DNA of 40,880 nucleotides from IMG/VR virus record IMGVR_UViG_2563366819_000005; one strand, given 5' to 3'. Shown here in pieces: positions 11,804 to 21,939 of this stretch. A program made the position numbers and the translations under genes. The notes beneath the pieces were generated by a model that saw only the letters and a list, made by a program, of their open reading frames with translations, was not told the origin of the DNA and did not search any database. Source of the stretch: a virus (Duplodnaviria > Heunggongvirae > Uroviricota > Caudoviricetes). Position 1 is the stretch's first letter, and every line of letters begins with the position of its first letter.

Positions 11804-11823
11804 AAAGCCTCCTAGGAGGCTTT
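11804..11823. terminator. 20-bp perfect palindrome AAAGCCTCCTAGGAGGCTTT; candidate bidirectional terminator between convergent genes
   Basis: Perfect inverted repeat flanked by A/T-rich sequence. Contains the stop codon of the methyltransferase gene. Confidence 0.4.
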
Positions 11824-12852
11824 GATTATATTAAGCAAATGTTTTCCAATCGTTTCAGACATCTTCGGAGGGACCGCATTTCCTATTTGACGAGCCCGAG
11901 ATTGCAAAGAACCAATAAATTTATAATCCAAAGGAAATGTTTGTAGACACGCTGCTTCACGAACCGATATTGCTCGATTTTGTGTTGGATGTCCAAAACG
12001 TCCATTTGAATAGCTAATACAACGAGTTGTTAGTCCGCTGGCTGGTTTGTCCCAACTCAAACGTCCATATACGTCTGTATGCCCTTTATGGTTACGATGG
12101 CATTCTAAAATCAATTCATCTGGCCAAAATTCTCGACTTCCACCTTCAGGAGTGCATTTTATTCTACGTAAATTAAGCTCTGATAAGCGTGCAGCTTCAT
12201 GATCAGGAATACTATTATGCTTTTCTCCTGCTTCTATCTTCGGTAAATTAGCGATCCAGTCCTTTACTGTTGAATAGGGAGTATTTCCAACCCCATGTGT
12301 AGGAGAAGGCAATGCGACATAAAAATCCTTGGATGCAATGAGCACTAATCTTTCTCGCGTCTGTGGTACACCGTACCACGCAGCTGGCATTACTTTATAA
12401 TCTACACTATATCCCTTTGATGAAAGCATTTCTAAAAACATCATGAATGTTCCTTCATTTTTGTTAAACTTTTGCATTCCTGGCACGTTTTCAACAAAAA
12501 TAAAATCAGGCATATAATGCTCTACAAAGCGACTGAATTCCTTTAATAGATCTAATCGTGGATCATCATTTTTCTTATTTGAGTTTTGCTTAGAGTACGG
12601 TTGACAAGGCGCACATCCTGAAAAAAGAATGTAATCATTACGATGTTTTTTTACTAACTTGTTTATGGCATTGTTGTCGATTAACCTAATGTCCGAGTTA
12701 ATAAAAGCAGCCTGCGGGAAATTTGCACGAAATGAACTGGCTGCATCAACGTCGAAATCGAGGCCAAAAACAATATCCATTCCAGCTTGATGGAAACCTT
12801 GGCTGGTTCCACCACAACCGGAAAAGAAGTCAAACACTTTGATTTTTTTCAT
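11812..12852 (-). CDS. DNA (cytosine-5)-methyltransferase (346 aa from ATG at 12852)
   Basis: C5-MTase motifs in order: FDFFSGCGG (motif I), GCAPCQPYS (motif IV PCQ, catalytic Cys), FVENVPGM (motif VI ENV), QTRERLVLIA (motif VIII), GNAVPP (motif X). GAGGG SD before the ATG. Confidence 0.85.
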   Translation of the reverse strand: MKKIKVFDFFSGCGGTSQGFHQAGMDIVFGLDFDVDAASSFRANFPQAAFINSDIRLIDNNAINKLVKKHRNDYILFSGCAPCQPYSKQNSNKKNDDPRLDLLKEFSRFVEHYMPDFIFVENVPGMQKFNKNEGTFMMFLEMLSSKGYSVDYKVMPAAWYGVPQTRERLVLIASKDFYVALPSPTHGVGNTPYSTVKDWIANLPKIEAGEKHNSIPDHEAARLSELNLRRIKCTPEGGSREFWPDELILECHRNHKGHTDVYGRLSWDKPASGLTTRCISYSNGRFGHPTQNRAISVREAACLQTFPLDYKFIGSLQSRARQIGNAVPPKMSETIGKHLLNIIKAS

Positions 12853-12875
12853 TTTTCCCTCTGCATCCAGAATCA

Positions 12876-14705
12876 CTACCTAATGATACCACGGTCAAGA
12901 GCCTGAGTAATTATTTTTCTTATTTTTATAAATTCAGGCAATTCATTTTTAAGTCTTGCGGTCATCATTTGTTGGAGGCAAAAAATTTCCTCTGCATTTA
13001 CTTCTTCTTTATCATACAGGTGTTGCGCTAATAATCTTATTTGATTCTTATACAGTTCTGGATCATTAGAACTCCAGGTCTGTGAATCAATTATTTCTTT
13101 TTCACTTGGCGTAATTGCCTTTTCAATGAGTAATTGTTCGGGAGTATCAAATGGTAAATACTGCACTTTATTGAATGCATACTCAAGCACTTGCCTTTTG
13201 AGTCTATTAGATTCTTGTTCATTTTTTTTGCCATTACTACCACTGGCATTGATAATTAACTCGCAACCATAATATTTGCACATTGTATTAACTAAATCAG
13301 CATCAGCAATTTCACTAATTCTTACTGGTTTTATTTTTTTGTTTTTATCACCATCAAGTAAAAACAAAATATCATTGCGTTCTACCACAGCGTAACTGGG
13401 AAGATGCTTGCTTAAAATGGTCTCCGAACCACCTGGTATATAACTTACACTAAATGATAAGCTTAATCTTTCATCATTTTTAATCGCTTTATCTATAATT
13501 GCTTTAGCTAATTTATCTTCTACAATTATTGTTTTCTTGTTAATATCATGCCCTAGCTCTATAAAAGCTTCATCCGGTGCTATATTTTGAACTATTTTAG
13601 CTGTTTCACTCTCTTCATCAAAAACAAATAATTTAATGGCATCTTTGGGAAGAGTGTTCACAATAACAGGAGAATGGGTTGATATTACCACTTGATGTTT
13701 TTTCTGCTCAACAATAGAGTACAGAACATCCATCATCCTTTTTTGTGCACCAGGGTGAAGTGAAACTTCTGGTTCGTCAAGAAGAATTAATGAATTAGGT
13801 TTGGCCGAATAAATATTGAGTATTAGTGAAACTATTGCAAATTCACCACTTCCAGCAAACGCTTCTGTATAGTTCAACTTATCAGTTGAAAGTAAAGCGG
13901 TTCCTCCTCTGGTTCCAAATAACCGATGCTCAAGAAATTTAATGACTTTATATTTTTTCCCTAATATAAATGAGACGTGCTCAACTAGTTCTGGCGCCAA
14001 GGTTATATTTTTAACAATGGTTTCCGCCCCCCAGAGTCTTAAATTACTTAGCTTTTCATCAAAAGCTTTCTTTATATATTTAGATTTGCTTCTGATATAG
14101 TCTTGCTTTGTAATTAATACACCACTCTTCTTCTTTCTTAATTTAAAATCAGAGTGATACATACATCTATCAAATGCACTTATTTCCGATCTGAAATCTA
14201 GGAAAACCAATCCCTTCTTGATTTTTTTCCATCTGGTTGCATTACTATTAGCACCCAGATCATCCGAAATACTCTCCATGTTATCACCAACAGATGGTCG
14301 ACTTGTTTCCCAATAATCGATTGTTTTCTTGGTAGCATTGATACGTGCTTGGAGTATTTCAACTAAACGGCCATCAGCATTTTTATATCCATATATATAT
14401 CTAGGTTTAAGAGAACTGCCATCAGCAAGTTTTAGGTCAGGAAACTCATCTGTTTCAGTTGTGAACCAATAACGAGTTATATTTTTACCATGTGGGCAAC
14501 CAAATAGCGCTTTGATAACAGAACTTTTATTAGTTCCATTTTTTCCTACTAAAGCCGTTATAGGGAACTGAAAATCGATCCTTGCATTCTGCTCTATATT
14601 TTTAAAGTATGGAAAACGGATATGTTGTATGAATGGTTCAAATTCACCGTTTTTTAACGCGCACTGGAGTGTTCGAATTTTGCTCTTGTATGCGGAAGTG
14701 CTCAT
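12876..14705 (-). CDS. OLD-family-like protein: N-terminal ABC-type ATPase plus putative C-terminal TOPRIM nuclease domain (609 aa)
   Basis: P-loop ALVGKNGTNKSS (GxNGxxKS type as in RecF/OLD), Walker B SLILLDEPEVSLHP, H-loop ISTHSP. C-terminal IIVEDKLAKAII followed about 55 aa later by LFLLDGDKN, resembling the TOPRIM Glu and DxD motifs. Visibly AT-rich. Confidence 0.65.
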   Translation of the reverse strand: MSTSAYKSKIRTLQCALKNGEFEPFIQHIRFPYFKNIEQNARIDFQFPITALVGKNGTNKSSVIKALFGCPHGKNITRYWFTTETDEFPDLKLADGSSLKPRYIYGYKNADGRLVEILQARINATKKTIDYWETSRPSVGDNMESISDDLGANSNATRWKKIKKGLVFLDFRSEISAFDRCMYHSDFKLRKKKSGVLITKQDYIRSKSKYIKKAFDEKLSNLRLWGAETIVKNITLAPELVEHVSFILGKKYKVIKFLEHRLFGTRGGTALLSTDKLNYTEAFAGSGEFAIVSLILNIYSAKPNSLILLDEPEVSLHPGAQKRMMDVLYSIVEQKKHQVVISTHSPVIVNTLPKDAIKLFVFDEESETAKIVQNIAPDEAFIELGHDINKKTIIVEDKLAKAIIDKAIKNDERLSLSFSVSYIPGGSETILSKHLPSYAVVERNDILFLLDGDKNKKIKPVRISEIADADLVNTMCKYYGCELIINASGSNGKKNEQESNRLKRQVLEYAFNKVQYLPFDTPEQLLIEKAITPSEKEIIDSQTWSSNDPELYKNQIRLLAQHLYDKEEVNAEEIFCLQQMMTARLKNELPEFIKIRKIITQALDRGIIR

Positions 14706-14853
14706 TGTTTACTAAAGTCCATAATAGGCTATTAACAGGTTGAGGATGACATGATAACGATTTTTAATGCAGATAAAAGAGGTTTGTTGGTTAGCACACA
14801 ACAGAAAAAGTGACCTTACCGCTTGAACGAAAGGTAAGGGTAAGTAGGCTGTG

Positions 14854-16071: not shown

Positions 16072-16361
16072 TGGTGAATTTACGTAAAGCGGCTAAAGGC
16101 CAGATGTGCCAGATCAGAATCCCTGGCTACTGCAATCACAATCCCGAAACCTCTGTGCTGGCGCATTACAGGCTGGCGGGGACGTGCGGAACAGCGACAA
16201 AACCACACGATATGCAGGCGGCGATAGCCTGTAGCTCATGCCACGATCTAATCGACGGGCGGGTAAAAACCAGCGATTACACCAAAGAAGAATTGCGCCT
16301 GATGCATGCTGAAGGGGTTTTTCGCACACAAGAAATCTGGAGAAAGAAAGGTCATTTATGA
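16071..16361 (+). CDS. YbcO-like (DUF1364) putative metal-binding nuclease, 96 aa
   Basis: MVNLRKAAKGQMCQIRIPGYCNHNPETSVLAHYRLAG...ACSSCHD: Cys/His-rich, same length and pattern as DLP12 YbcO. Confidence 0.6.
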   Translation: MVNLRKAAKGQMCQIRIPGYCNHNPETSVLAHYRLAGTCGTATKPHDMQAAIACSSCHDLIDGRVKTSDYTKEELRLMHAEGVFRTQEIWRKKGHL

Positions 16362-16900
16362 TTTACCCAACGAATACAGGAAAAAGCGGAGAACACCTTC
16401 GCCTCACCACGCTGGAAAGTGTCTGGATTCAGGGAAAACTACGTATGTGGGGGCGCTGGTCGTATATTGGCGGTGGCAGGTCAGGGAATATGTTCAATCA
16501 GTTGTTGGCATCCAAAAAACTGACGAAAACAGCCATTAATGAAGCCCTGCGCAGAATGAAAAAAGCGGGAATAGAGAAAGCTGAGCTGGAAGCGTTTTTG
16601 CGAGAGATGATCAACGGCAAGCAAAAGAGCTGGCTGGCGCATTGTACTGATGCAGAGGCGTTATGTATTGATCGAGTCATAAGTGAGGTGCTGGCAGAGC
16701 ATCCAGGATTGATTTGCATTCTCCGGCAACGCTATGAAGGGCGGGGGATGACTAAGCGCAAAATGGCTGAATTGCTAAATGATGCACACCCAGAGTGGTG
16801 TTTTAGCACATGCGAAAAACGGATTGCTAATTGGTTAGCTGTTGCTGAGTATGCCCTATATATTCCCATGCGTGAATCATTTGCTGAGAAAATGGCTTGA
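16358..16900 (+). CDS. Q-like late-gene antiterminator (180 aa)
   Basis: Last gene of the nin-like operon (ATGA-coupled), immediately upstream of a strong terminator and the lysis region. WGRW segment resembles small Q-family proteins. Confidence 0.55.
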   Translation: MIYPTNTGKSGEHLRLTTLESVWIQGKLRMWGRWSYIGGGRSGNMFNQLLASKKLTKTAINEALRRMKKAGIEKAELEAFLREMINGKQKSWLAHCTDAEALCIDRVISEVLAEHPGLICILRQRYEGRGMTKRKMAELLNDAHPEWCFSTCEKRIANWLAVAEYALYIPMRESFAEKMA

Positions 16901-16985
16901 TTTCTTACGTATAAACTGCTTCAATTTTGCTATGCTTCGCAAAGCTGTATCGCGAGGCGGATTGCAGACATGGACATCGTAAAAA

Positions 16986-17007
16986 AACCGCTTAATGCGG
17001 TTTTTTT
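16986..17007 (+). terminator. Intrinsic terminator (tR'-like): AACCGC-TTAAT-GCGGTT followed by T7
   Basis: GC-rich 6-bp stem with a run of 7 T after it (and an A-run before), about 85 nt downstream of the Q-like gene. Confidence 0.6.
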
Positions 17008-17328
17008 ACGTCAGGAAAGCAGGGGAGAATGCTGCTAGTTGGGCAACTGGTCTTTCTGCTCCAAATTATAACAGAGACCAGTTATAGTTTCGGTGCTGTG
17101 TTTTTTTTACAATATTGTGATAACACATTGCTGGCGGGAGTTTTGATATTTCTTGGCAGGGGCTGATGATGCGTTATCCTGATGTCGTCAACTCATATAA
17201 AATGAGATGAGAGATCATTGCAGGGTGGTTTGTAATTCGCTGTTTAGCGGGACAATATGTTGTCTGATACAAGACACCCGACGCCTCAGATTACTATAAT
17301 AAAGACGAAGCATCCTTTGTATTGACCA

Positions 17329-17353
17329 ACCGCCTGTTTAGGCGGTTCTTTTT
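17329..17353 (+). terminator. Intrinsic terminator ACCGCC-TGTTTA-GGCGGT followed by TCTTTTT; may end a short transcript
   Basis: Hairpin plus T-tract. A TATAAT hexamer lies at 17295-17300 upstream. Confidence 0.4.
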
Positions 17354-17944
17354 GGGCTGGTTTATTGTATGCCAAATGATTATTAAAAAGGTTGTGTTAA
17401 TAACAAAATCCGAAATAATATGCCTGCATATTTTTATCTTGCTTATATTCTGCATATTGTGCATAGCAGGCTCATCCCTGCAATCAAAACTGTATGATGA
17501 GTATTTTTTGTTTTCCTTTTTTCCAGTCATCTGATGATGACCTGCTTCTTTTTAATCCGGATCGACATCAGTTTTTTAAGATAATTCCTGCGAGTTATAT
17601 GCATAAATACCACAAACTCCGCATTTTATGTGGTTGGGAGTTGCCGGGCGCGCAGTGAGTTTGCTAAGAAAACTCCTGCATGGTGAATCCCCCTGTGCGG
17701 TGGGGTGATACCATTAACCTTTTCTGTCGCCGACAGGTATCACGAACATTTTGTTCACCGGGAGGCACCCGGCACCATGCACTTCAATAGATTCTCTCCA
17801 CATTATGGATATTCTTTCAGAATATCCCACGCAGACTTTGTGTAAATGTTAACAAATGTGCGTTTTATTTGATCTGATTCGCTGTTTGAGCGTCCAAAAC
17901 AACGGTATATATAATCCTTTACTATATGACATATGTGAGGAAAA

Positions 17945-18373
17945 ATGGGTTTTCGTAGCGCATCAATTCTTACGTTGATTATTAGTGGGATTATTATCGG
18001 GTGCACTGATGCTGTATCGACAAATTATCATGACCGTACATCATATTACTCCGATAAAGCAATAGAGACACAGTATGTGAGTTCATCTGAACGTACTTCT
18101 GATGTTAGGGAGGATATCCGTCTGTATGCCCATCAAATCAAGAGCGCCATCGAAAAACAGTTCGGGGATGCGAGTAAGTATTCAGGAAAAGAGTGTACAC
18201 TGAGAATGCATATGGCCCCGAATGGCCTTCTACTGGAGGTTAAAAGAGAAAGTGGAGACCTCGATTTATGTCGTGAAGCGATGAATGCGATAAAGAATGC
18301 TGATATACCTGCCCCCCCTTCGCCGGAAGTATATAAAGTATTTCAAAATGGGGTGCTGGATTTTAAACCCTGA
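17945..18373 (+). CDS. Putative lipoprotein moron 1 (142 aa)
   Basis: Signal peptide with lipobox (IIIGC). C-terminal domain is paralogous to the next gene. AT-rich. Confidence 0.6.
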   Translation: MGFRSASILTLIISGIIIGCTDAVSTNYHDRTSYYSDKAIETQYVSSSERTSDVREDIRLYAHQIKSAIEKQFGDASKYSGKECTLRMHMAPNGLLLEVKRESGDLDLCREAMNAIKNADIPAPPSPEVYKVFQNGVLDFKP

Positions 18374-18523
18374 TATTTATTGTTTTGTAATAAACGGTTT
18401 CGGCTTAGGTTTGTTCTGACACAGCTACGGCACTGAGCTAAATTTAGCGGATAGTCAGCTCTGAGCCAGTGGCGGACGTAACAACTACTATTGCTGAGAT
18501 TTTAATGGATTGAGGAGCAAGAA

Positions 18524-18919
18524 GTGGGATTAAAGAAAATCGTTATGTTGACTTTTTGGGTCGGTTTTGTTGCGGGATGCACACCTTTACACCCTTCAGA
18601 TTGCCACAAAACTACTGCTACAGGTAGTTGCAGTTCAGGACGCTGGGATGATCAGGATGAATGGGGGGCGCAAGCGCGGGGAATCAGAGCTGCAATTAAT
18701 GCCAAACTTGATGAGCCGCATAACTGGAAAGGGAAAAAATGCAGGTTGCATATGGAATTCTCTCAGGATGGCACGGCGTTAAAAATATCTACCAGTAACG
18801 GTGATAAAGCCTATTGCGAAGCGATAAAGTCCGCAGCTCATAAAGCCAAATTTCCGGCCTTCAACAATCCGGAAGTCTACAGAGATTTTCAGAAATCTGG
18901 CTTTGACATGCGAGGTTAG
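18524..18919 (+). CDS. Putative lipoprotein moron 2 (131 aa), paralogue of 17945-18373
   Basis: Lipobox FVAGC. C-terminus KKCRLHMEFSQDG...NNPEVYRDFQKSGFDM aligns with ECTLRMHMAPNG...PSPEVYKVFQNGVLDF of the upstream gene. Confidence 0.6.
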   Translation: MGLKKIVMLTFWVGFVAGCTPLHPSDCHKTTATGSCSSGRWDDQDEWGAQARGIRAAINAKLDEPHNWKGKKCRLHMEFSQDGTALKISTSNGDKAYCEAIKSAAHKAKFPAFNNPEVYRDFQKSGFDMRG

Positions 18920-19170
18920 CTCTTCAATTACTATATCTCATTCATAGCAAACTGACAGATTTGATGATGTTCTATATACGAAACCTGTGATGTCAAGTCT
19001 GAGCTAATACAAATAAACATAATATCAGAGAAATACATTTTATTAGCTCGCTACGGCGAGCTTTTTATATTGCATCGTCTCCAGCATATATATCAATTAA
19101 GGCTCTGATTGATGTGTCTGAAAGCCTACACATAATAACTATGCCATCCGTTCCGTGCGGAGGTGAGGCT

Positions 19171-19386
19171 ATGAAATCCATGGACAAAATTTCAACAGGC
19201 ATTGCCTACGGCACCTCCGCAGGCAGTGCTGGCTACTGGTTTTTACAGTTGCTCGATAGAGTAACTCCGTCACAGTGGGCTGCAATCGGTGTGCTGGGTA
19301 GTCTGGTATTTGGCCTGCTGACGTACCTGACAAACCTTTATTTCAAGATTAAAGAAGATAAGCGCAAGGCTGCGAGAGGTGAATAA
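19171..19386 (+). CDS. S21-type pinholin (dual-start MKSMDK motif), 71 aa
   Basis: [71 protein letters not shown] resembles phage 21 S / DLP12 EssD as I recall them. Confidence 0.85.
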
Positions 19387-19883
19387 TGCCTCCATCATTA
19401 CGAAAAGTCGTTGCTGCTGCTATTGGTGGCGGAGCAATTGCTATAGCATCAGTGTTAATCACTGGCCCAAGTGGTAACGATGGTCTGGAAGGTGTCAGCT
19501 ACATACCATACAAAGATATTGTTGGTGTATGGACTGTATGTCACGGGCATACAGGAAAAGACATCATGCTCGGTAAAACGTATACCAAAGCAGAATGCAA
19601 AACACTCTTGAATAAAGACCTTGCCACGGTCGCCAGACAAATTAACCCGTACATCAAAGTCGATATACCGGAAACAACGCGCGGCGCTCTTTACTCATTC
19701 GTTTACAACGTGGGTGCTGGCAATTTCAGAACATCGACGCTTCTTCGCAAAATAAACCAGGGCGATATCAAAGGCGCATGTGATCAGCTACGTCGCTGGA
19801 CATATGCTGGCGGTAAGCAATGGAAAGGTCTCATGACTCGTCGTGAGATTGAGCGTGAAATCTGTTTGTGGGGTCAGCAATGA
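19386..19883 (+). CDS. SAR endolysin (R21-like lysozyme), 165 aa
   Basis: N-terminal Gly/Ala-rich signal-anchor-release segment [16 protein letters not shown] followed by a lysozyme domain. TAATG-coupled to the holin. Confidence 0.85.
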
Positions 19884-20344
19884 ACAGAGTAACCGCGATT
19901 ATCTCCGCTCTGGTTATCTGCATCGTCGTCTGCCTGTCATGGGGTGTTAATCATTACCGTGATAACGCCATCGCCTACAAAGAACAGCGCGACAAAAATG
20001 CCAGAGAACTGAAGCTGGCGAACGCGGCAATTACTGACATGCAGATGCGTCAGCGTGATGTTGCTGCGCTCGATGCAAAATACACGAAGGAGTTAGCTGA
20101 TGCGAAAGCTGAAAATGATGTTCTGCGTGATGATGTTGCCGCTGGTCGTCGTCGGTTGCACATCAAAGCAGTCTGTCAGTCAGTGCGTGAAGCCACCACC
20201 GCCTCCGGCGTGGATAATGCAGCCTCCCCCCGACTGGCAGACACCGCTGAACGGGATTATTTCACCCTCCGGGAACGACTGGTAATGATGCAGGCCCAAC
20301 TTGAAGGTGCTCAGCAATACATAACCGAGCAGTGTTTAAAGTAA
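19880..20344 (+). CDS. Rz-like i-spanin
   Basis: N-terminal transmembrane helix and coiled-coil periplasmic domain, immediately after the endolysin. Confidence 0.8.
20100..20285 (+). CDS. Rz1-like o-spanin lipoprotein embedded in the +1 frame of Rz
   Basis: [23 protein letters not shown]... lipobox plus proline-rich mature region, entirely within the Rz gene. Confidence 0.8.
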
Positions 20345-20481
20345 AATCTTAACTACAATATGATTCATTTTGATGATTGTTTCATAAGGAACAGTGAAGT
20401 AAGATCTAAGAGGAGTTAAATTTTATACAGTATAATCATAATATTGCAGCAAGGTGGTTATAATTGAAAGAATATTTAGAT

Positions 20482-21939
20482 ATGAATACATCTCATGTAA
20501 GAGTTGTTACTCATATGTGTGGGTTCCTGGTTTGGCTCTATAGTCTTTCAATGTTGCCACCAATGGTTGTAGCATTGTTTTATAAAGAAAAAAGCCTGTT
20601 CGTTTTCTTTATAACTTTCGTTATATTTTTTTGCATTGGTGGCGGAGCGTGGTATACAACTAAGAAATCTGGCATTCAATTACGTACCCGTGATGGGTTT
20701 ATTATAATTGTAATGTTTTGGATTTTGTTTTCTGTTATTAGTGCATTCCCTTTATGGATTGACTCAGAACTTAATTTAACGTTCATTGATGCTCTGTTTG
20801 AAGGGGTTTCTGGAATAACAACAACAGGAGCAACTGTAATTGATGATGTTAGTTCATTACCTCGGGCATATTTGTACTATCGGTCACAGTTAAATTTTAT
20901 AGGTGGTTTAGGAGTTATTGTTCTGGCGGTTGCTGTATTGCCATTATTGGGTATTGGTGGTGCAAAGCTTTATCAGTCAGAAATGCCGGGGCCATTTAAG
21001 GATGACAAACTCACTCCCCGCCTGGCCGATACGTCACGGACACTGTGGATAACTTATTCTTTATTAGGTATTGCTTGTATTGTCTGTTATAGACTTGCAG
21101 GAATGCCTTTGTTTGATGCTATTTGTCACGGGATTTCCACAGTTTCGCTTGGTGGTTTCTCAACTCATAGCGAGAGTATCGGATATTTTAATAACTATTT
21201 GGTTGAGCTGGTGGCTGGTTCTTTTTCCCTGCTATCGGCTTTCAACTTCACTCTTTGGTATATTGTTATTAGCAGGAAAACGATAAAACCTTTAATCAGA
21301 GATATTGAACTTCGTTTCTTTCTGTTAATAGCCTTAGGGGTGATCATTGTTACCTCTTTCCAGGTCTGGCATATAGGTATGTATGACTTGCATGGAAGTT
21401 TTATTCATTCGTTTTTTCTTGCCAGCTCCATGCTCACTGATAATGGTTTAGCTACGCAGGATTATGCAAGTTGGCCCACGCACACGATAGTGTTTTTGCT
21501 GTTGTCAAGTTTCTTTGGGGGATGTATAGGTTCAACTTGTGGTGGAATTAAGTCACTTCGATTTCTTATACTTTTAAAACAAAGCAAACACGAGATAAAT
21601 CAGCTTTCTCATCCCAGAGCGTTGTTGAGTGTAAATGTAGGAGGGAAGATAGTTACAGATCGTGTAATGAGGTCTGTATGGAGTTTCTTTTTTCTTTATA
21701 CTCTCTTCACGGTGTTTTTTATACTGGTGTTAAATGGTATGGGATATGATTTTCTTACATCATTTGCAACAGTGGCTGCATGTATTAATAATATGGGATT
21801 AGGTTTTGGGGCTACTGCATCGTCATTCGGAGTGCTTAATGACATTGCAAAATGTTTAATGTGCATAGCTATGATTCTTGGTCGCCTTGAAATTTATCCT
21901 GTTATTATATTGTTTTCAGGTTTTTTTTGGCGCTCCTAA
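20482..21939 (+). CDS. trkG: TrkG potassium uptake protein (485 aa), prophage moron
   Basis: Multi-pass membrane protein beginning MNTSHVRVVTHMCGFLVWLYSLSMLPP. AT-rich, and immediately after the lysis genes as in Rac. Confidence 0.9.
   Translation: MNTSHVRVVTHMCGFLVWLYSLSMLPPMVVALFYKEKSLFVFFITFVIFFCIGGGAWYTTKKSGIQLRTRDGFIIIVMFWILFSVISAFPLWIDSELNLTFIDALFEGVSGITTTGATVIDDVSSLPRAYLYYRSQLNFIGGLGVIVLAVAVLPLLGIGGAKLYQSEMPGPFKDDKLTPRLADTSRTLWITYSLLGIACIVCYRLAGMPLFDAICHGISTVSLGGFSTHSESIGYFNNYLVELVAGSFSLLSAFNFTLWYIVISRKTIKPLIRDIELRFFLLIALGVIIVTSFQVWHIGMYDLHGSFIHSFFLASSMLTDNGLATQDYASWPTHTIVFLLLSSFFGGCIGSTCGGIKSLRFLILLKQSKHEINQLSHPRALLSVNVGGKIVTDRVMRSVWSFFFLYTLFTVFFILVLNGMGYDFLTSFATVAACINNMGLGFGATASSFGVLNDIAKCLMCIAMILGRLEIYPVIILFSGFFWRS

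Follow-up and report, generated by a model that had tools for sequence, protein, structure and literature searches.

Two prophage lipoproteins built on TolA domain III, possible decoys for Tol-dependent colicins and filamentous phages

What do two small lipoproteins do when their genes sit between the late antiterminator and the lysis genes of a lambdoid prophage? The question is raised by the virus record IMGVR_UViG_2563366819_000005 (Caudoviricetes), a stretch of 40,880 nucleotides that is called the window here in its whole length, and in which two adjacent genes, A and B, occupy positions 17945-18919. A sequence-only reading of this DNA had taken them for paralogous lipoprotein morons in a slot for lysogenic-conversion cargo, and had guessed at superinfection exclusion or envelope modification. 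As lipoproteins in a cargo slot, A and B fit that guess in general terms, while the reading had not recognised the TolA domain III that both proteins carry and that narrows it. Based on this domain, we propose, with a probability of roughly 0.45, that A and B are outer-membrane-tethered decoys of TolA domain III that would confer tolerance to Tol-dependent colicins and to filamentous phages. The two genes and their parts are as follows.

17945-18373, plus strand: gene A, lipoprotein precursor, ATG start, 142 residues
18092-18370, plus strand: TolA domain III of A (residues ~50-142), preceded in the protein by a low-confidence linker (~21-49)
18374-18523, plus strand: spacer between A and B, 150 bp, invariant within the mobile block described below
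18524-18919, plus strand: gene B, lipoprotein precursor, GTG start, 131 residues
18581-18652, plus strand: Cys-containing segment of B (residues 20-43, with C27 and C36)
18653-18916, plus strand: diverged TolA-III-like domain of B (residues ~44-131)

Both open reading frames (ORFs) were recovered at these positions, and their N-termini are built alike, with a short basic segment followed by a hydrophobic one and a lipobox of the pattern [LVI][ASTVI][GAS]C, which reads MGFRSASILTLIISGIIIG/C in A (IIG/C20-T-D, signal peptide 1-19) and MGLKKIVMLTFWVGFVAG/C in B (VAG/C19-T-P) and is retained throughout both families. The residue at position +2 is Thr in A and B, and Thr or Ala in all family members. 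Under the Lol rule, a +2 residue other than Asp leads to outer-membrane sorting, and from the Thr at this position A and B are predicted to be lipidated and sorted to the outer membrane. A Shine-Dalgarno sequence precedes each start (GAGGA at 17937-17941 for A, GAGGAG at 18512-18517 for B). The genes had been called AT-rich, which holds mildly for A (GC 42.7%), whereas B (46.0%) is close to the window as a whole (45.8%).

The folded mature part of each protein is TolA domain III (TolA-III) in its entirety. The Pfam family of the TolA C-terminus, PF06519, matches A with 82.2 bits (3.1e-23) and B with 54.6 bits (1.3e-14) at a gathering cut-off of 25 bits, and a Pfam scan of the two proteins at E<=1 returned nothing beyond TolA, TonB_2 and a weak But2 match. 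A matches the solved E. coli TolA-III chains in the Protein Data Bank (PDB) at 7.7e-28, its residues 56-142 aligning gap-free with TolA 335-421. In the AlphaFold2 (AF2) models the predicted local distance difference test score (pLDDT) exceeds 90 over residues 50-142 of A and 44-131 of B, and the N-terminal 45-50 residues are of low confidence in both. By Foldseek, the A model superposes on 2x9a_B with a TM score of 0.96 and a root-mean-square deviation of 0.6 Å (59% identity), and the B model on 3qdp with 0.92 and 1.1 Å (31% identity); the matches include the g3p and colicin A complexes of TolA-III, and the α-β-β-α-α-β fold of both models superposes on the solved domain. The two Cys residues of the disulfide pair C363/C388 (E. 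coli numbering) are present without exception in the 8 A-family and 19 B-family sequences compared. Structure prediction and homology search, two of the checks that the sequence-only reading had itself proposed, both identify TolA-III in A and B, and its claim of two lipobox proteins with homologous C-terminal domains was borne out, as the two proteins align with 28% identity at E = 1e-18, a similarity that is not due to chance, and both fall in PF06519.

The paralogy that had been claimed stands as homology and falls as local duplication. Over TolA 335-421, A shares 52/87 residues (~60%) with TolA and B shares 27/87, and A and B share 25/87 with one another. A tandem duplication was rejected since A is twice as close to host TolA as to B and since the distributions of the two families differ; by sequence, the genes are two separately acquired TolA-III modules.

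Neither gene is a TolA orthologue. Both lack the N-terminal TolQR-coupling membrane anchor and the long helical domain II of TolA, and therefore cannot transmit TolQR force; both also lie outside the tolQRA-tolB-pal operon, with a Q-like gene and holin, lysozyme and Rz genes as neighbours. The NCBIfam models TIGR02794 and PRK09510 match only via their last ~90 positions (265-362 of 362 and 294-386 of 387). Against them A scores 75.1 (above the cut-off of 59.45) and 106.8 (below the cut-off of 213), and B stays below both. The score above the TIGR02794 cut-off probably explains the 'tolA' label given by the Prokaryotic Genome Annotation Pipeline (PGAP), whose names for A are inconsistent, either 'cell envelope integrity protein TolA', which is an over-annotation, or 'tolA, incomplete, missing N-terminus'. 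PGAP often starts B at an internal Met, yielding 124 residues. In the RefSeq sequence NZ_CP021726.1, with an identical locus (L018, 3714-3974 and 4146-4520), A stands as a truncated tolA pseudogene and the internal start of B drops the basic N-terminus of its signal peptide. The domain family is thus known already, as are the genes, which are in databases under misleading names; in PHROGs both belong to phrog_5772, function unknown (B at 6.7e-65). No structural match was found at E<=1e-3 among the viral structures of BFVD, so catalogued phage proteins essentially lack the TolA-III fold, and neither A nor B is covered by a PADLOC model. An indexed search with A returned no full-length TolA, probably owing to word-index limits.

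The pseudogene label raises the question of whether A is what remains of a captured tolA gene, a fragment that no longer functions, and A does cover only the last ~90 residues of TolA. However, A has a start codon, a Shine-Dalgarno sequence, a signal peptide and a lipobox of its own, none of which is present in tolA, and its ORF is intact in 883 genomes. Neither the reading frame nor the lipobox nor the disulfide Cys residues are lost in variants of 65-90% identity, and dN/dS (by Nei-Gojobori, as for all values here) is 0.34, below 1, between A and its variant from Shiga toxin-producing E. coli (STEC). The pseudogene reading was rejected on the intact ORFs, the conserved variants and dN/dS, and a dead fragment is barely credible.

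B, a member of an old family, is constrained more tightly, with dN/dS of 0.08-0.12 over the whole gene and 0.06-0.08 over the domain only when it is compared with plasmid or chromosomal homologues. Judged by these ratios, A and B would both be functional genes, not debris, and A evolves faster than B, as expected of a mimic tracking its partners. Segment 20-43 of B carries two extra invariant Cys residues, a dN/dS of 0.01-0.10 and the motif C-x-P-L-H-P-S-x-C-H-K-T-x-A-x-G-S-C-S-S-G-R-W-D-D-Q-D-E-W, which AF2 models as a β-hairpin of low confidence.

In the Tol-Pal system, TolA-III serves as the docking domain in the periplasm, to which TolB, the group A colicins (A, N and, via TolB, others) and the g3p of filamentous phages (Ff, If1) bind by β-strand addition. 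The colicin A site comprises β2 (L375-P380) plus K368, K379, K396 and L392 (PMC3365938), and the site of g3p-N1, colicin N and TolB comprises helix 334-341 together with β3 (A415-K420), where D418 and K420 form backbone hydrogen bonds (PMC4339652, PMC7391070), while Tyr353 (Y352 in the older numbering) has been tied to TolB binding by genetics and surface plasmon resonance (PMC2707214). The published affinities are 1 µM for colicin N with TolA and 40 µM for TolB with TolA, binding that is ~40-fold tighter for colicin N (PMC4339652). These contacts were mapped onto the 8 A-family and 19 B-family sequences. In A, the β3 docking strand LDFKP is identical to that of E. coli TolA; within family A, whose members share ~65% identity, L417-D418-F419-K420 is invariant, as are L375, L376, K379 and K396 of the colicin A site, with Val throughout at I378 and H, Y or N in place of K368. 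A thus mimics E. coli TolA-III closely, and the two ligand surfaces that are known are for the most part preserved in it. Family B has F-D-M-R at β3, and with its different surface the ligand range of B probably differs from that of A. At Tyr353, family A has G, K or R and family B has D or E.

The distribution of A is narrow. Of 5,426 complete E. coli genomes, 888 (~16%) carry it, almost always on the chromosome, and among 185,579 species-representative genomes it was found in one Shigella flexneri genome only; that scan returned no tolA genes, and the donor tolA lineage of A was not identified by it. In IMG/VR, 149 viral contigs encode something related to the A/B alignment, the 80 best matches all being ~99% identical to A, and one of 50,697 deposited phage genomes (mEp460_ev081) carries the cassette. 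A is therefore restricted to Escherichia/Shigella prophages and viral contigs. A 65%-identical variant stands alone in a STEC prophage, right after a tRNA-Ile/tRNA-Arg pair and followed by a copy of the STnc100 small RNA (sRNA) element; in Stx phages, stx is carried at this position.

B shares this distribution in prophages and reaches well beyond it. Copies of ~88% identity occupy ~525 plasmid sites in E. coli and ~600 PLSDB plasmids. On conjugative IncK2/Z plasmids (I-complex, MPF_I) the B-type gene follows the relaxase gene at a distance of 68 nt, and on pO157 (L002, 6964-7395) its neighbour is a relaxase remnant, in the vicinity of toxB; plasmid B-type genes are probably co-transcribed with transfer genes. 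The classical IncI1 plasmid pESBL lacks the gene, nikB being directly followed by trbC, and neither of two transposon studies of I-complex plasmids mentions it. In Enterobacter (syntenic in at least 4 genomes), Serratia and Citrobacter, homologues of 79-88% identity each occur as a single gene on the chromosome, in a stable neighbourhood free of phage genes, whereas in E. coli the B-type gene is found on mobile elements only. In Serratia marcescens the chromosomal gene adjoins GmrSD-like and HEPN-domain genes, typical neighbours in defence islands, between nrdDG and the phn operon. The sequence-only reading had named, as what would speak against it, homologues that are ordinary core-genome lipoproteins with no phage link; this is half true of B, given these three genera, and untrue of A, which is confined to prophages and viral contigs. 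A profile-free search of 1.84 billion representatives gave ~130 clusters, most of them of 120-150 residues with a lipobox. A third family of lipobox-TolA-III proteins was also seen, on ~275 Klebsiella IncR/IncF plasmids (144 residues, lipobox LITAC, 46% identical to E. coli TolA-III, β3 L-D-F-R), and its gene adjoins one for a periplasmic thioredoxin-fold protein (L004, 2768-3797, IncR), a pairing which hints that disulfide formation matters for these proteins.

These chromosomal genes suggest that at least B might be an ordinary envelope lipoprotein, such as an accessory partner of TolB, Pal or CpoB or a stress factor, picked up by mobile elements as a general fitness gene. The fixed neighbourhoods, the strong purifying selection that includes the Cys-loop segment, and the ~130 clusters of mostly similar size and architecture would all suit such a role. 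But B is on mobile elements only in E. coli and is accessory on plasmids, as pESBL illustrates, and in Serratia its neighbours are of the defence type; moreover, a conserved chromosomal decoy against bacteriocins would look identical. A purely physiological role for B is on balance quite improbable.

The decoy reading is drawn from several of these observations taken together: A shows exact conservation of the docking strands, it is confined to the host whose TolA it copies, and related genes are on MPF_I (I-type) conjugative plasmids. If1 is a filamentous phage specific to the I-pilus. The g3p of If1 binds TolA-III (PDB 2x9a), and the third family on Klebsiella plasmids fits the same picture of defence cargo. 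In the mechanism that we propose, a tether of 25-35 residues would hold a free TolA-III just beneath the outer membrane, where the translocation domains of colicins and g3p first emerge, and the tethered domains would compete with energised TolA for the ligands of the invader and trap them in dead-end complexes, so that a lysogen would tolerate Tol-dependent colicins and resist filamentous phages that depend on TolA. Expression in the lysogen would come from the cassette's own promoter, and lytic expression would be unavoidable through Q-antiterminated late transcription. As the parasite ligands bind more tightly than TolB and the TolB-linked Tyr is gone, a modest level of decoy could spare the Tol-Pal system of the host.

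How the cassette travels and is transcribed can be read from its surroundings, in which the following features were placed.

16358-16900, plus strand: Q-like late antiterminator gene, by Pfam, on the left side of the slot
17271-17300, plus strand: pR'-like promoter AAGACA-18-TATAAT, by consensus scan
17328-17347 plus tail, plus strand: terminator-like hairpin with T-run, by consensus scan; with the promoter it spans 17271-17357
17648-17834, plus strand: STnc100/PasD-family prophage sRNA element (Rfam RF02076, 86.6 bits at a 47-bit gathering score)
17886-17915, plus strand: promoter-like site TTGAGC-18-TATAAT, 10/12 consensus match, 30 nt before the start of A
19045-19068, plus strand: terminator-like hairpin AGCTCGCTACGGCGAGCT (19045-19062) plus T-run, closing the cassette after B
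19114-20344, plus strand: lysis cassette, by Pfam and ORFs, on the right side of the slot
19114/19171-19386, plus strand: P21-type holin (Pfam Phage_holin_2_1)
19386-19883, plus strand: lysozyme (Pfam Phage_lysozyme)
19868-20344, plus strand: Rz (Pfam Phage_lysis), with an embedded Rz1 at 20100-20285

Comparison of 18 window segments with 80 viral loci showed that positions 17754-19113 form a portable cargo block of 1.36 kb that moves intact between unrelated lambdoid late regions. The block, made up of the 3' part of STnc100, the promoter-like site, A, the spacer, B and the terminator, is invariant; to the left of 17754 there are two unrelated contexts, each in about half of the 80 loci, and to its right the holin is identical or 80-95% identical, while lysozyme, Rz and trkG vary. 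B follows A in every viral contig that extends far enough, and phage mEp460_ev081 has the block with a different Q and a different lysin. STnc100 belongs to a repeated, PasD-related family of prophage sRNAs that is typical of this slot (bioRxiv 10.64898/2026.05.13.724894). The left homology breakpoint falls inside the element, whose 3' part (from ~17754) is the left end of the block, and copies flank A-type genes in other phages (L001, 3891-4081); a STEC prophage locus (L016, 4468-4680 and 6440-7419) has five of them, four in tandem. Recombination between STnc100 repeats is a plausible route by which the cargo may have moved.

The slot itself is that of a Rac-like lambdoid prophage, as which the stretch was identified. 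To the left lie DUF1367 and YbcO genes and the Q-like gene (Pfam DUF1133 2.5e-107, Phage_antitermQ 8.6e-06), and ~370 bp after the latter the candidate Q-dependent late promoter/terminator (17271-17357) is placed as a lambdoid layout would have it; A and B lie 3' of it, as had been claimed. To the right stand the lysis genes, named essD/rrrD by PGAP. The assignment to a Q-to-lysis slot for lysogenic-conversion cargo was thus confirmed, and the A variant at the stx-type position of STEC agrees with it. In its movement between unrelated late regions the block looks like a moron, a description that the promoter-like site and the terminator-like hairpin would also suit.

Several observations concern the wider neighbourhood. 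Directly 3' of Rz lies a trkG-like K+ transporter gene (20464-21939, plus strand; GC 0.377, GC3 0.32), further cargo of foreign composition that only part of the related viral loci carry, and its position after the lysis genes is the hallmark of Rac-like lambdoid prophages. The ~290 bp of AT-rich DNA that separate the tR'-like terminator from STnc100 (17361-17647, GC ~0.37), which occur only in the left flank of the window's own type, hold overlapping ORFs of 70-78 residues on both strands, one of them (17322-17534, plus strand) very hydrophobic. After the Q-like gene, isrK matches in Rfam on both strands (16934-17062) reach ~20-22 bits against a 50-bit gathering score and are probably due to chance. 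On the minus strand, 11812-14705 holds a low-GC pair of genes (GC 0.34-0.37 around 14000-14800), one for an AAA ATPase of 609 residues (Pfam AAA_21/AAA_15; best PADLOC matches HEC-04, ATPase-Toprim, AriA and PtuA-like) and one for a C5 cytosine methyltransferase of 354 residues, which looks like a second, defence-type cargo island of the same prophage.

With regard to transcription, the genes had been said to be about 150 bp apart, which is exactly the length of the spacer, and each to have possibly its own promoter. For A this agrees with the 10/12 site at 17886-17915, which is 100% conserved in mEp460_ev081 and in all 80 viral loci; for B the case is weak, with a 9/12 site at 18416-18444 and no terminator between the genes. 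The region has 11 promoter-like sites against 6.6±3.1 in shuffled sequence, a level at which one site on its own is no proof. The spacer (18374-18523) contains neither a terminator nor inverted repeats, and for want of the latter an operator or attenuator there was rejected. A and B would be transcribed by Q-modified polymerase in the lytic cycle, and possibly from their own predicted promoter in the lysogen.

A cassette within the Q-dependent late transcript, directly upstream of holin, lysozyme and Rz, would be strongly expressed at lysis, and this invites a different explanation, namely that A and B are dominant-negative modulators of Tol-Pal which capture the TolB N-terminus at the outer membrane and uncouple TolB-Pal from energised TolA. 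The outcome would be a local 'tol' phenotype (weak outer membrane, hypervesiculation, periplasmic leakage) that aids the spanin step, progeny release or vesicle shedding; on plasmids, where the gene follows the relaxase gene in a transfer operon, it could loosen the envelope for mating. A retains the β3 strand to which TolB binds. A full tol phenotype results when strand addition between TolA and TolB is blocked by mutation (PMC4339652), and tol-pal defects lead to hypervesiculation (PMC7391070). However, TolA-III binds TolB weakly (40 µM, PMC4339652), the TolB-linked Tyr is absent from both families, and the cassette's own promoter-like site and terminator point to expression in the lysogen. 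In addition, most lambdoid phages lyse well without the cassette, rare as it is among phage records (1/50,697), and the strongly conserved chromosomal B of Enterobacter and Serratia is hard to reconcile with envelope damage. We hold such a modulator to be unlikely.

The decoy reading has a laboratory precedent, since Levengood-Freyermuth, Click and Webster reportedly observed in 1993 that wild-type cells into whose periplasm TolA-III is exported become colicin-tolerant and show periplasmic leakage. That construct is said to have been artificial and soluble, an overexpressed free periplasmic domain. The mechanism proposed for A and B is the same, but they are natural, predicted to be lipid-anchored, present in two diverged versions and borne by mobile elements. 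Compared with TolA-III itself (PF06519; PDB 1TOL, 2X9A, 3QDP/3QDR, 1S62), both proteins have the fold, the family and the disulfide pair in common, and A shares the β3 strand LDFKP and most of the β2 colicin A site, whereas domains I and II of TolA are replaced by a lipoprotein signal peptide and a short tether, in a prophage-encoded gene outside the tol-pal operon. In Ff-infected cells, g3p blocks the TolA-g3p axis in the periplasm and renders them phage-resistant and colicin-tolerant. Here the polarity would be reversed: there a phage ligand saturates TolA, while here a copy of TolA would saturate the ligand. With other lambdoid late cargo (stx, nanS-p, the STnc100/PasD/AgvB/AsxR sRNAs) the cassette shares the Q/tRNA-to-lysis slot, the STnc100-family flanks and a mosaic distribution, but its cargo is a mimic of a host domain instead of a toxin, an esterase or an sRNA.

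Llp of T5, Cor of phi80 and N15, and TraT of the F plasmid are likewise small outer-membrane lipoproteins of mobile elements that protect their carrier at the envelope, yet they bind or mask an outer-membrane receptor (FhuA, OmpA), whereas A and B copy a periplasmic co-receptor and bear no sequence relation to them. A and B could nonetheless exclude superinfecting tailed phages by binding an outer-membrane receptor or an incoming phage protein, with the TolA-III fold as a mere scaffold. To our knowledge no tailed coliphage needs TolA, which counts against this explanation. It would be in keeping with small predicted outer-membrane lipoproteins in a prophage cargo slot and with known examples being lipoproteins (Llp, bioRxiv 10.64898/2026.03.26.714494), but the Pfam scan at E<=1 gave no relation to Llp- or Cor-type families, and a scaffold role leaves the exact conservation of the TolA ligand strands in A unexplained. 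We hold it to be very unlikely.

Several points weigh against A and B being decoys. We found in the literature no functional study of a phage- or plasmid-borne TolA-III lipoprotein or of a TolA decoy. (PMC2948877, PMC10326431 and PMC11684603 were set aside as not relevant, with chromosomal tolA or reference-list mentions only.) That the proteins are lipidated, sorted to the outer membrane and able to bind ligands, and that the promoter is active, is inferred throughout. The place in the late operon means very high expression at lysis, which pure protection of the lysogen does not need, and the chromosomal conservation of close B homologues in other genera could equally mean a housekeeping role in the envelope. 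B has lost nearly every colicin A contact (K368E, K379S, P380T, L392K, K396H/Q), and its helix-1 face differs too. Furthermore, the 'tether' of B is under stronger constraint than its domain, which a passive linker would not predict; it is more than a spacer, and none of the hypotheses accounts for it.

A wider claim is more tentative and may well fail, namely that mobile elements of Enterobacteriaceae have repeatedly used outer-membrane-tethered copies of the TolA hub as decoys against group A colicins, bacteriocins and pilus-specific filamentous phages that hijack Tol-Pal, in at least three independent lineages (the E. coli-specific prophage gene A; the pan-enterobacterial B of prophages, I-complex plasmids and chromosomes; and the Klebsiella plasmid family), with the two versions in the cassette covering different ligands and the lost Tyr sparing the Tol-Pal system of the host. 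Such a natural defence by 'receptor-domain mimicry' would be one that the present catalogues of defence systems do not list.

Should the decoy idea fail, natural TolA-III domains of the soluble type with altered residues at the TolB site are still ready probes of Tol-Pal function, and the annotations 'TolA' and 'tolA pseudogene' need correcting. If the decoy reading is true, ~16% of complete E. coli genomes would carry a prophage factor that alters sensitivity to Tol-dependent colicins and filamentous phages, and many I-complex plasmids as well as pO157 would carry a factor of the same kind, which would bear on strain competition in the gut, on colicin- and phage-based therapeutics, and on phage display and M13 tools in wild strains. 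It would also explain the gene beside the relaxase on conjugative plasmids, which create the pilus receptor for filamentous phages, and it would represent a new principle of envelope defence, in which a periplasmic co-receptor is copied instead of a surface receptor being masked.

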